A DNA stretch of 4,141 bases, taken from the IMG/VR virus record IMGVR_UViG_2778261231_000011, one strand, 5' to 3'. The stretch is from a virus (taxonomy: Duplodnaviria; Heunggongvirae; Uroviricota; Caudoviricetes). Shown piece by piece: positions 1,796 through 4,141 of the stretch; the stretch's first letter is position 1; every line of letters begins with the position of its first letter. The translations under genes were made by a program, and so were the position numbers. The notes under the pieces are model-generated. The model did no database searches. It saw nothing but the letters and a program-made list of their open reading frames with translations, and had not been told where the DNA came from.

Positions 1796-2014
1796 TCACA
1801 ATCCCCATTGTTTGTTCTTAAGTTCGATCTCCTCCTGGCAACTTGCACAAGTCCGACAACCCTGAACGGCCAGGCGTCTTCGTTCATCTATGGGATCGCC
1901 ACACTTACAACAATGAGTGGCAGATATAGCCTGGTGGTTCAGACGACGCATTTTTATTGCTGTATTGCGCTGTAATTCTTCGATTTCTGATGCTGAATCA
2001 ATGATGTCTGCCAT
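1796..2014 (-). CDS. DksA/TraR-family C4 zinc-finger protein, 72 aa (TraR-like modulator of host RNA polymerase)
   Basis: The motif HCCKCGDPIDERRRLAVQGCRTCASCQ matches the CxxC-(n)-CxxC zinc finger and the conserved G(N/D)PI(P/D)E-ARR stretch of F-plasmid TraR (CEACGNPIPEARRKIFPGVTLCVECQ). Length and position are typical of prophage TraR homologues. Confidence 0.85.
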   Translation of the reverse strand: MADIIDSASEIEELQRNTAIKMRRLNHQAISATHCCKCGDPIDERRRLAVQGCRTCASCQEEIELKNKQWGL

Positions 2015-2596: not shown

Positions 2597-3150
2597 ACAG
2601 CCCCCCGTTTATTATTTATCTTCTCAGCCAGCCGCTGTGCTTTCAGTGGATTTCTGATAAACGCCTTTACCCGAATCAGGTAAACACAAAAGACAAACTA
2701 ACAAAAGACAATATAAAACCTTTTTCGTCAGAGAATTCTGGCGAATCCTCTGACCAGCCAGAAAACGATCTTCCTGTGGTGAAACCGGATGCTGCAATTC
2801 AGAGCGGCAGCAAGTGGGGGACAGCAGAAGACCTGACCGCCGCAGAGTGGATGTTTGACATGGTGAAGACCATCGCGCCATCAGCCAGAAAACCGAATTT
2901 TGCAGGGTGGGCTAACGATATCCGCCTGATGCGTGAACGTGACGGACGTAACCACCGCGACATGTGTGTACTGTTCCGCTGGGCATGCCAGGACAACTTC
3001 TGGTCCGGTAACGTGCTGAGTCCGGCCAAACTCCGCGACAAGTGGACCCAGCTCGAAATCAACCGAAACAAGCAACAGGCTGGCGTGACAGCCGGCAAAC
3101 CAAAACTCGACCTGACGAACACTGACTGGATTTACGGGGTGGAGCTATGA
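2548..3150 (+). CDS. O: Replication protein O, C-terminal (P-interacting) domain only; N-terminally truncated with a non-homologous GTG-initiated 5' extension; possibly a pseudogene or remnant
   Basis: From about 2685 onward the translation (TKDKLTKDNIKPFSSENSGESSDQPENDL...WGTAEDLTAAEWMFDMVKTIAPSARKPNFAGWANDIRLMRERDGRNHRDMCVLFRWACQDNFWSGNVLSPAKLRDKWTQLEINRNKQQAGVT...KPKLDLTNTDWIYGVEL) matches, from memory, the linker and C-terminal domain of lambda O. The stop overlaps the P start as ATGA, as in lambda. The first roughly 45 codons show no O similarity. The frame opens at 2527 and the only upstream start is GTG 2548 (GAGG 4 nt upstream); the first in-frame ATG is 2584. Confidence 0.7.
   Translation: MPSRYSFLTQREMLYAYSPPFIIYLLSQPLCFQWISDKRLYPNQVNTKDKLTKDNIKPFSSENSGESSDQPENDLPVVKPDAAIQSGSKWGTAEDLTAAEWMFDMVKTIAPSARKPNFAGWANDIRLMRERDGRNHRDMCVLFRWACQDNFWSGNVLSPAKLRDKWTQLEINRNKQQAGVTAGKPKLDLTNTDWIYGVEL
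2681..2740. other. Remnant of a lambda-type replication origin: AT-rich unwinding segment without the upstream iterons
   Basis: An AT-rich run carries the direct repeat ACAAAAGACAA twice (2686-2696 and 2701-2711), followed by TTTTTCGTCAGAGAATTCTGGCGAATCC with an EcoRI site at 2733-2738. This matches my recollection of the right half of ori-lambda, which lies inside O. No 18-19 bp iteron repeats are visible in the 250 bp upstream. Confidence 0.5.
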
Positions 3151-3848
3151 AAAACATCGCCGCACAGATGGTTAACTTTGACCGTGAGCAGATGCGCCGG
3201 ATCGCCAACAACATGCCGGAACAGTACGACGAAAAGCCGCAGGTACAACAGGTAGCGCAGATCATCAATGGTGTGTTCAGCCAGTTACTGGCAACTTTCC
3301 CGGCGAGCCTGGCTAACCGGGACCAGAACGAACTGAACGAAATCCGCCGCCAGTGGGTGCTGGCTTTCCGGGAAAACGGGATCACCACAATGGAACAGGT
3401 TAACGCAGGAATGCGCGTAGCCCGTCGGCAGAATCGACCATTCCTGCCATCACCCGGGCAGTTTGTTGCCTGGTGCCGGGAAGAAGCATCCGTTAACGCC
3501 GGGCTGCCAAACGTCAGCGAGCTGGTTGATATGGTCTATGAGTATTGTCGGAAGCGTGGCCTGTATCCGGATGCAGAGTCTTATCCGTGGAAATCAAACG
3601 CGCACTACTGGCTGGTTACCAACCTGTACCAGAACATGCGGGCCAATGCGCTTACTGATGCGGAATTACGGCGCAAGGCTGCCGATGAACTGACTTGTAT
3701 GACCGCGCGAATTAACCGTGGTGAGGCGATACCTGAACCAGTAAAACAACTTCCTGTCATGGGCGGTAGACCTCTAAATCGTGCACAGGCTCTGGCGAAG
3801 ATCGCAGAAATCAAAGCGAAGTTCGGACTGAAAGGAGCAACTGTATGA
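3147..3848 (+). CDS. P: Replication protein P (lambda P family; DnaB helicase loader), 233 aa
   Basis: The translation (MKNIAAQMVNFDREQMRRIANNMPEQYDEKPQVQQVAQIINGVFSQLLATFPASL ... AKIAEIKAKFGLKGATV) is recognised as near-identical to bacteriophage lambda P at the same length. ATGA overlaps link it to O' upstream and ren downstream. Confidence 0.93.
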   Translation: MKNIAAQMVNFDREQMRRIANNMPEQYDEKPQVQQVAQIINGVFSQLLATFPASLANRDQNELNEIRRQWVLAFRENGITTMEQVNAGMRVARRQNRPFLPSPGQFVAWCREEASVNAGLPNVSELVDMVYEYCRKRGLYPDAESYPWKSNAHYWLVTNLYQNMRANALTDAELRRKAADELTCMTARINRGEAIPEPVKQLPVMGGRPLNRAQALAKIAEIKAKFGLKGATV

Positions 3849-4141
3849 CGGGCAAAGAGGTAATTATTCATTATCTGGAGACGCACAAGAGCTTCTGTGC
3901 GCAGGACGTTGCTGCGGCAACAGGTGTGACAGTAACCTGCATAAATCAGGCAGCAGCTAAAATGGCGCGGGCAGGAATCCTGGTCATTGATGGTAAGGTC
4001 TGGCGAACGGTGTATTACCGGTTCGCTACCAGAGAAGAACGGGAAGGAAAGGTGAGCACGAACCTGATTTTTAAGGAGTGTCGCCAGAGTGCCGCGATGA
4101 AGCGGGTGTTGGCGGTATATGGGTTATTAGTTATTACTTGA
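3845..4141 (+). CDS. ren: Ren (Rex-exclusion resistance protein) homologue, 98 aa, complete with stop at 4139-4141
   Basis: The translation MTGKEVIIHYLETHKSFCAQDVAAATGVTVTCINQAAAKMARAGILVIDGKVWRTVYYRFATREEREGKVSTNLIFKECRQSAAMKRVL closely matches lambda Ren as I recall it. It sits immediately after P with an ATGA overlap. The last roughly 8 residues may diverge from lambda. Confidence 0.82.
   Translation: MTGKEVIIHYLETHKSFCAQDVAAATGVTVTCINQAAAKMARAGILVIDGKVWRTVYYRFATREEREGKVSTNLIFKECRQSAAMKRVLAVYGLLVIT

Follow-up and report, generated by a model that had tools for sequence, protein, structure and literature searches.

A λ Orf73-type TraR-family gene, probably silent, in an icd-integrated prophage remnant

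Introduction

TraR-type proteins are a well-described means by which phages and plasmids reprogram host RNA polymerase (RNAP) without ppGpp. The described protein closest to the one considered here is Orf73 of bacteriophage λ. Purified λ Orf73 competes with DksA for E. coli RNAP, using the same binding site (Gopalkrishnan et al., mBio 2022, PMC9239242). It inhibits the rrnB P1 promoter without ppGpp and with an IC50 of about 50 nM, equal to that of TraR; rpsT P2 is inhibited too, and D3N and D6N variants of the protein are much poorer inhibitors of both promoters (PMC9239242). Whereas DksA is fully active only with ppGpp, TraR and Orf73 need none; Orf82 of phage P2 likewise binds RNAP and inhibits rrnB P1 (PMC9239242). 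In TraR, residues R48 and R49 make contacts with the rim helices and with β′ Si3 (PMC9239242). Unlike TraR, λ Orf73 activates the promoters tested weakly if at all, which its authors suggest may be explained by two extra cysteines (PMC9239242); given this weak or absent activation, the statement that Orf73 works exactly like TraR is true for inhibition only.

The effects of λ Orf73 in cells have also been described. Induced Orf73 complements a deletion of dksA, and when it is made from pL in a defective prophage the level of pre-rRNA falls to 29% and that of rpsT mRNA to 45%, while host growth is slowed (PMC9239242). Transcription of the gene starts at pL soon after induction, ribosome profiling cited in the same study detects the protein at that early stage, and wild-type λ lysogens treated with mitomycin C yield 3-4-fold more phage than orf73 mutants (PMC9239242). 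In the uninduced λ lysogen at 30 °C the presence of orf73 has essentially no effect (ratios of 0.95 for rrn and 0.93 for rpsT; PMC9239242).

Here we describe a gene of this type in a 4141-base stretch of phage-derived DNA, referred to below as the window. We present evidence that it very probably encodes a TraR-branch protein of the DksA/TraR family, orthologous to λ Orf73, whose function at RNAP can be assigned by homology, and that in the prophage remnant in which it now resides it is likely a silent passenger.

Results

A minus-strand gene encodes a 72-residue member of the TraR/DksA family

An open reading frame (ORF) on the minus strand of the window, at positions 1796-2014, begins with an ATG at 2014, ends with a TGA stop codon at 1798-1796 and encodes a product of 72 amino acids, MADIIDSASEIEELQRNTAIKMRRLNHQAISATHCCKCGDPIDERRRLAVQGCRTCASCQEEIELKNKQWGL. 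The initial annotation had proposed a TraR/DksA-like zinc-finger gene here, and its coordinates, stop codon included, proved exact; the strand, which it did not state, is the minus strand. Since the 4.1-kb window contains 41 ORFs of at least 30 amino acids, the length of this one is insignificant by itself, and it is homology that argues for a real gene. The Pfam family PF01258 (zf-dskA_traR) matches residues 33-64 (E 1.3e-8; 35.2 bits against a cut-off of 24.9), and PHROG 54, described as a DksA-like zinc-finger protein, matches the full length (E 3.7e-25). A phmmer search of PDB sequences returned TraR of the F plasmid over essentially the whole length of the protein (5w1s_M, E 2.9e-5, and 6n57_M), and YbiI (2KGO) was the second-best PDB match by both sequence and fold, with a sequence match covering only residues 29-67. 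A large protein collection holds 226 homologues, and all of those with names are called TraR/DksA family. When phage genomes were searched by tblastn, the protein was found to be 90% identical to the product of the λ gene lying between orf61 and ea22, which the λ imm434 record annotates as a DksA/TraR C4 zinc-finger protein; direct alignment gives 89% identity to λ Orf73 and 32% to F TraR, and identity to a protein of phage 186 is about 39%. The ratio dN/dS (Nei-Gojobori), based on small counts, is about 0.2 in comparison both with λ and with a second E. coli allele. Across 44 homologues the start codon and the N-terminal residues MADIID are kept, and the ribosome-binding site of the gene is weak.

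The curated subfamily models allow the placement of the protein to be refined. Against the NCBIfam model TIGR02419 (C4_traR_proteo) it scores 53.6 bits (E 2.5e-14), short of the cut-off of 59.7. F TraR, used as a control, passes with 80.5 bits, and λ Orf73, whose function has been validated experimentally, scores 54.7 and misses the same cut-off as the window protein. The shortfall may thus reflect a limitation of the cut-off, which leaves out a proven functional member. Two equivalog models are missed by far more, that for F TraR (NF010268) with 27.9 bits against 108 and that for YbiI (NF008243) with 42.4 against 96, and scores so far below the cut-offs mark the window protein clearly as a family relative and no orthologue of either. 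No DksA model was among the four NCBIfam families returned for the protein at E ≤0.01, and at 72 amino acids, compared with 151 for DksA, it is not DksA proper.

Homology to λ at the DNA level runs at 97% identity across positions 1819-2660 and stops at 1819, inside the 3′ end of the orf73-type gene, so that the last residues of the protein belong to a different module of the mosaic. In the alignment of 44 homologues the C-terminus of the window protein resembles EEIELKNKQRG, an ending that is common in the Enterobacter and Citrobacter homologues. We also note that a 12-codon ORF, MASKQQISTSSN, begins at an ATG overlapping the orf73 stop codon (window 1796-1819); it may be the stub of an ASCH-domain gene that is present at that position in one related genome (L003).

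The gene is widespread. Copies with at least 90% nucleotide identity are found in 3305 of 5426 complete E. coli genomes (about 61%), frequently more than one and up to six per genome, and genes identical to it at 100% of DNA positions carry the RefSeq name 'TraR/DksA family transcriptional regulator'. Phage PhiR47_2 (L002; PV340567.1), deposited as a complete genome, encodes a 100% identical 72-residue protein at positions 1925-2143; the allele thus occurs in a phage whose whole genome has been recovered. The deposited annotation of PhiR47_2 omits this gene, and two plus-strand ORFs are called nearby instead.

The zinc-binding cysteines and the acidic tip residues are present

The initial annotation had suggested alignment with TraR and DksA as a check on the four cysteines and the conserved acidic residues of the coiled-coil tip, and this alignment finds all of them in place. 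For DksA we used the C-terminal two-thirds of the E. coli protein, with the sequence confirmed against 1TJL, and the window protein aligns only to DksA residues from about 69 to 151. The N-terminal motif D3-x-x-D6-x-A8 aligns with D3, D6 and A8 of TraR and with D71, D74 and A76 at the tip of the DksA coiled coil; the zinc cysteines C35-x2-C38-x17-C56-x2-C59 align with C37, C40, C58 and C61 of TraR and with C114, C117, C135 and C138 of DksA; and R46 and R47 align with R48 and R49 of TraR. Conservation was computed on the alignment of 44 homologues, with identities as low as 60%. No variation occurs in it at D6, A8 or C35, and D3, C38, C56, C59, R46 and R47 are conserved in at least 90% of the sequences. 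The window protein, like λ Orf73, has six cysteines, and of the two extra ones, C36 and C53, only C53 is conserved within the Orf73-like subfamily. W70 of the window protein takes the place of an arginine found in most homologues of this alignment.

An AlphaFold2 model built on the same 44-homologue alignment has a mean pLDDT of 82.7 and consists of a helix at residues 5-23, a zinc-knuckle region and a helix at residues 57-70. The modelled protein thus has the architecture of the TraR branch, with one helix at either end of a globular zinc domain, all within 72 amino acids. When this model was compared with the PDB using Foldseek, the top match was TraR in its cryo-EM complex with RNAP (6n57_M; TM 0.59 over 71 columns), followed by YbiI, TraR in 5w1s and DksA-RNAP complexes. 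The fold match reaches beyond the zinc knuckle.

The gene lies in an integrase-proximal leftward block

The genes on the minus strand are ordered orf63, an orf61-like gene, a terminator, the TraR-like gene, a DUF4222 gene, xis and int, an order that bears out the placement of the gene in an integrase-proximal accessory block by the initial annotation. The first intact gene of the leftward block in the remnant is orf63 (DUF1382; positions 2405-2596; Pfam PF07131, E 3e-31; PHROG 292). It is followed in the same leftward operon, upstream of the TraR-like gene, by the orf61-like gene (2113-2394), which matches PHROG 303 (E 1.7e-42) and is annotated as orf61 in PhiR47_2. The orf61-like ORF can be read as 93 amino acids, all of which are covered by PHROG 303; shorter calls are found elsewhere, of 71 amino acids in the RefSeq record of L003 and in assembly gene calls and of 51 amino acids in the λ imm434 record. 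A 31-residue ORF at 2021-2116, which overlaps the terminator and has no family match, was treated as spurious. Directly downstream of the orf73-type gene, at the position that ea22 and ea8.5 occupy on the λ map, is the DUF4222 gene (1509-1748; Pfam PF13973, E 5.2e-19; PHROG 285). The excisionase gene follows at 1133-1369 (Pfam PF07825), as annotated also in PhiR47_2 and L003, and the λ-type tyrosine integrase gene at 1-1143 (Pfam PF09003 and PF00589) adjoins icd in the source genomes (L003, L005-L010). All of these genes lie on the minus strand. An AT-rich inverted repeat of 16 pairs (1463-1501) lies between the DUF4222 gene and xis; 15 of 200 shuffled sequences folded at least as well as its RNA (z -1.5). 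When the window was scanned against Rfam with gathering thresholds, no known RNA family was returned.

A 4.9-kb deletion removed the control region of the prophage

Bases 1-2660 of the window match lambdoid phages at 97-99.5% identity and cover int, xis, DUF4222, orf73, orf61, orf63 and a 3′ stub of orf60a. Bases 2658-4141 correspond to the 3′ half of replication gene O followed by P and ren, a segment located several kb from the first in those phages. The two parts meet at 2658-2660, where a TAA is common to both sides and the stub of orf60a is joined to the interior of O, a junction established by comparison with L008, L006, L010 and phages; the segments that meet there are 2569-2660 on the orf60a side and 2661-3150 on the O side. 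Each part is 100% identical to L008, in which they are about 4.9 kb apart; in the two relatives that lack the deletion, L008 and L009, both sides of the junction agree with the window at 100% or 99.96% identity, with about 4.9 kb in between. The deletion is recent, judging by flanks that are 100% identical to those of the parent L008. By way of the exact variant of Ren we located the whole 4141-base window, contiguous and at 100% identity, in two genomes, L006 (GCA_900604275.1) and L010 (GCA_002545375.1). An assembly chimera at the junction was considered and rejected, since all 4141 bases recur without a difference in two NCBI assemblies that are independent of each other. The exact junction had no match in 185,579 GTDB species-representative genomes, and no match spanning it was present in the 5426 complete E. 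coli genomes.

Relative to L008 the remnant has lost the 5′ part of orf60a, exo, bet, gam, kilR, the gene for the S24-peptidase repressor, the cro-like gene (YdaS), the gene at the cII position (YdaT) and the 5′ half of O, and with these its early leftward control region. Four of the five iterons of the replication origin, which presumably differ from the λ type, are deleted as well; the last one, TTTACCCGAATCAGGTAAA, remains at 2666-2684 together with an AT-rich tract (2666-2740). Through these losses the element has become a small remnant that should be unable to replicate. In L008 the stretch at 6054-6644 belongs to a Rac-like immunity region with kilR, the S24 repressor, YdaS and YdaT.

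The prophage adjoins icd, and in L006 ren is followed by an HD-domain gene, IS1 transposase genes, an uncharacterised 193-residue ORF, an autotransporter gene, ymgD and minCDE. The last 21 nucleotides of the ren-like gene (window 4121-4141) diverge from ren of PhiR47_2, giving a 98-residue variant that ends in VYGLLVIT, and the end of the window is another mosaic boundary, beyond which the HD-domain gene lies on the opposite strand in the source genomes. We also note that a single icd prophage lineage is present in at least four derivatives degraded in different ways (L003, L005, L007 and L006/L010), comprising two different deletions of the immunity region, a disruption of that region flanked by transposase genes and an internal deletion from orf61 to orf60a. 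The genes int-xis-DUF4222-traR are intact in all of these, in a sample too small for selection to be inferred.

A terminator and a weak predicted promoter lie upstream of the gene

An intrinsic terminator on the minus strand, at 2064-2092, separates orf61 from orf73 and lies 50-78 nucleotides upstream of the start codon. It was found by a terminator scan and has a GC-rich stem of 8 bp, a loop of 3 nucleotides and a U-tract, its tail reading UUUUUUAUUAUU (RNA folding energy -10.2 kcal/mol, z -2.66). Its sequence, AAAATCATCAGGGAGCTACAGGCTCCTTTTTTATTATT, is that of the predicted terminator t2 of λ and φ24B (PMC4195576, Table 4), and in λ transcript levels are lower downstream of t2 than upstream (PMC4195576).

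Overlapping the terminator on the same strand, at 2065-2097, is the weak promoter p1, predicted by BPROM (PMC4195576, Table 3), with a -35 element TCATCA at 2097-2092 and a -10 element TTTTATTAT at 2073-2065. The p1 sequence predicted in λ and φ24B is exactly kept in the window, and this BPROM prediction makes p1 the only candidate for expression of orf73 independently of pL. Its -35 element matches the consensus at three of six positions, and the best -10 matches at four to five of six with poor spacing; a consensus promoter scan did not flag it. Consensus scans of the window and of L006 positions 7500-13000 returned no promoter-like site above chance upstream of the gene on the minus strand, and such scans return fewer sites overall than shuffled controls. 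In φ24B the level of orf73 mRNA is high after treatment with H2O2, higher than that of the genes upstream of it (PMC4195576). In the parent L008, a search of the interval from kilR to the repressor gene (6054-6644) for an N-type antiterminator gave no convincing ORF.

The control region having been lost and a terminator lying just upstream, the sequence context suggests that the orf73-type gene of the remnant is intact but most likely silent or nearly so. With the repressor and the early leftward control region lost, a terminator upstream of the gene and no promoter-like site above chance found there on the minus strand, constitutive expression from a cryptic element, which the initial annotation had raised as an alternative, is unsupported.

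Discussion

The orf73-type gene described here is a known family member, characterised by experiment and annotated as a matter of routine. The experiments on the 89%-identical λ Orf73 (PMC9239242) make it likely that its product acts in the secondary channel of RNAP and represses rrnB P1 independently of ppGpp. It is through that protein, together with the zinc cysteines and acidic residues present in the window protein, that the proposal of ppGpp-independent reprogramming of transcription made in the initial annotation gains its support. By homology to the characterised proteins, the window protein would bind E. coli RNAP directly and not DNA. Its N-terminal helix would enter the secondary channel and bring D3, D6 and A8 near the active site, while the globular zinc-ribbon domain, with C35, C38, C56 and C59 and the R46/R47 pair, would rest on the rim helices and β′ Si3 and the C-terminal helix would touch β Si1. 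The expected consequence is that open complexes would be destabilised at kinetically sensitive promoters, such as rrn P1 and ribosomal protein promoters, without any need for ppGpp. In the intact parent phage the gene would be part of the early leftward operon, and its product, whose λ orthologue appears shortly after either induction or infection, may divert host transcription from ribosome synthesis and so raise phage yield. A role in the switch from lysogeny to lytic growth, also envisaged in the initial annotation, fits well with the production of λ Orf73 from pL early after induction and with its effect on phage yield (PMC9239242). In the remnant the allele, though intact, would most likely be carried along by a decaying prophage with little or no expression.

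It could be argued that there is no functional gene at all, the ORF having arisen by chance or encoding a generic zinc-ribbon DNA-binding protein unrelated to RNAP. The ORF is short, its ribosome-binding site is weak, the annotation of PhiR47_2 contains no call for it and one curated subfamily cut-off, that of TIGR02419, is missed. Such a reading nevertheless sits poorly with homology to TraR and Orf73 over the full length, with a start codon and MADIID N-terminus kept in 44 homologues, with a dN/dS of about 0.2, with a fold match outside the zinc knuckle and with the detection of λ Orf73 early after induction by ribosome profiling (cited in PMC9239242); we regard it as scarcely credible, and the data on homology and conservation effectively refute it. 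A protein with a TraR-like fold might instead have its main role elsewhere, in blocking the initiation of host replication (the 'bin' phenotype of orf73, ea22, ea8.5 and orf55) or in biasing the decision between lysis and lysogeny. Earlier genetics cited in PMC9239242 does tie the orf73 cluster to inhibition of host replication initiation and to the lysis-lysogeny decision, and both TraR and Orf73 inhibit dnaA P2 and P1 at high concentration, with IC50 values of about 0.4-2 μM (PMC9239242). These dnaA promoters, however, need far more protein than rrnB P1 does, about 8-fold more for P2 and about 34-fold more for P1; dnaA mRNA is lowered weakly if at all in vivo, and the authors see the effect on replication as possibly indirect, acting through rRNA transcription and supercoiling (PMC9239242). 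Moreover, ea22, ea8.5 and orf55 are absent from the window, where DUF4222 stands in their place. A main role of this kind therefore seems unlikely to us.

A different question is whether the gene, accepted as a TraR-family member, has been domesticated by the host, such that transcription from p1 or by read-through would supply a low-level, ppGpp-independent mimic of DksA that tunes host promoters for rRNA, stress responses or amino-acid synthesis. The exact conservation in the window of the p1 sequence predicted in λ and φ24B is in keeping with this, as are the level of φ24B orf73 mRNA above that of its upstream genes after H2O2 (PMC4195576), the intactness of the gene and its identity to the parent copy, and the persistence of int-xis-DUF4222-traR in the four differently degraded derivatives of the icd prophage. 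We nevertheless think it quite improbable, given that p1 is weak and is missed by the consensus scan, that the rrn and rpsT ratios of 0.95 and 0.93 in the λ lysogen at 30 °C argue against meaningful pL-independent expression of the λ copy, that the deletion, its flanks still matching the parent at 100% identity, is so recent that retention of the gene says nothing about selection, and that expression of Orf73 slows growth. The more specific proposition that transcription of the remnant gene from p1 yields a low-level DksA mimic shifting host rRNA and stress promoters, and that retention of the block in independently degraded derivatives reflects selection, strikes us as very improbable. We accordingly favour for the remnant gene the reading set out above, of a λ Orf73 orthologue that is likely a silent passenger.

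The finding matters little beyond correct annotation, and the NCBI pipeline names the gene routinely. The experiments that the initial annotation had proposed were already published in 2022 for the 89%-identical λ Orf73 (PMC9239242), and what they would address is established knowledge and no new lead. The aspect specific to the window is its context, an icd prophage with a recent 4.9-kb deletion. Of some value is the question whether orf73, with its many copies in defective prophages, is ever expressed from them and then alters growth-rate control in the host; as a remnant with neither a repressor nor an early leftward promoter, the element described here offers a clean natural test case for the expression of orf73 in defective prophages, while being in itself no evidence for such expression.

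Among the known systems, E. coli DksA (1TJL) shares the C4 zinc finger and the DxxDxA tip motif with the window protein. DksA, however, is a protein of 151 amino acids with an N-terminal region and a two-helix coiled coil, of which the window protein has an equivalent of the second helix only. E. coli YbiI, P2 Orf82 and the TraR-like proteins of phage 186 share the zinc finger of the DksA/TraR C4 type. F-plasmid TraR (5W1S, 6N57), the best structural match, is nearly the same size (73 amino acids, against 72) and has in common with the window protein D3, D6 and A8, the four zinc cysteines with equal spacing, equivalents of R48 and R49 and the C-terminal helix; identity between the two is nonetheless only 32%, and the window gene is borne by a phage rather than by a tra operon.

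The closest likeness is to λ Orf73, to which the protein is 89% identical over its full length. The first 36 residues, DxxDxA included, are identical, and the two proteins have the same CxxC-17-CxxC arrangement, the same two extra cysteines and the same RR pair. The differences are eight substitutions (window to λ: K37E, A49V, E62D, I63L, K66I, N67S, W70R and L72S), together with a C-terminus that is one residue shorter in the window protein, and five of the eight lie in or just past the C-terminal helix, which in TraR contacts β Si1. In genomic setting the two differ in that the window gene is followed by DUF4222 and λ orf73 by ea22 and ea8.5, and in that the prophage in the window is integrated at icd and had an immunity region of the Rac-like type, here deleted. 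Within the leftward operon, the gene occupies the same place as in λ, after orf63, orf61 and the t2 terminator.
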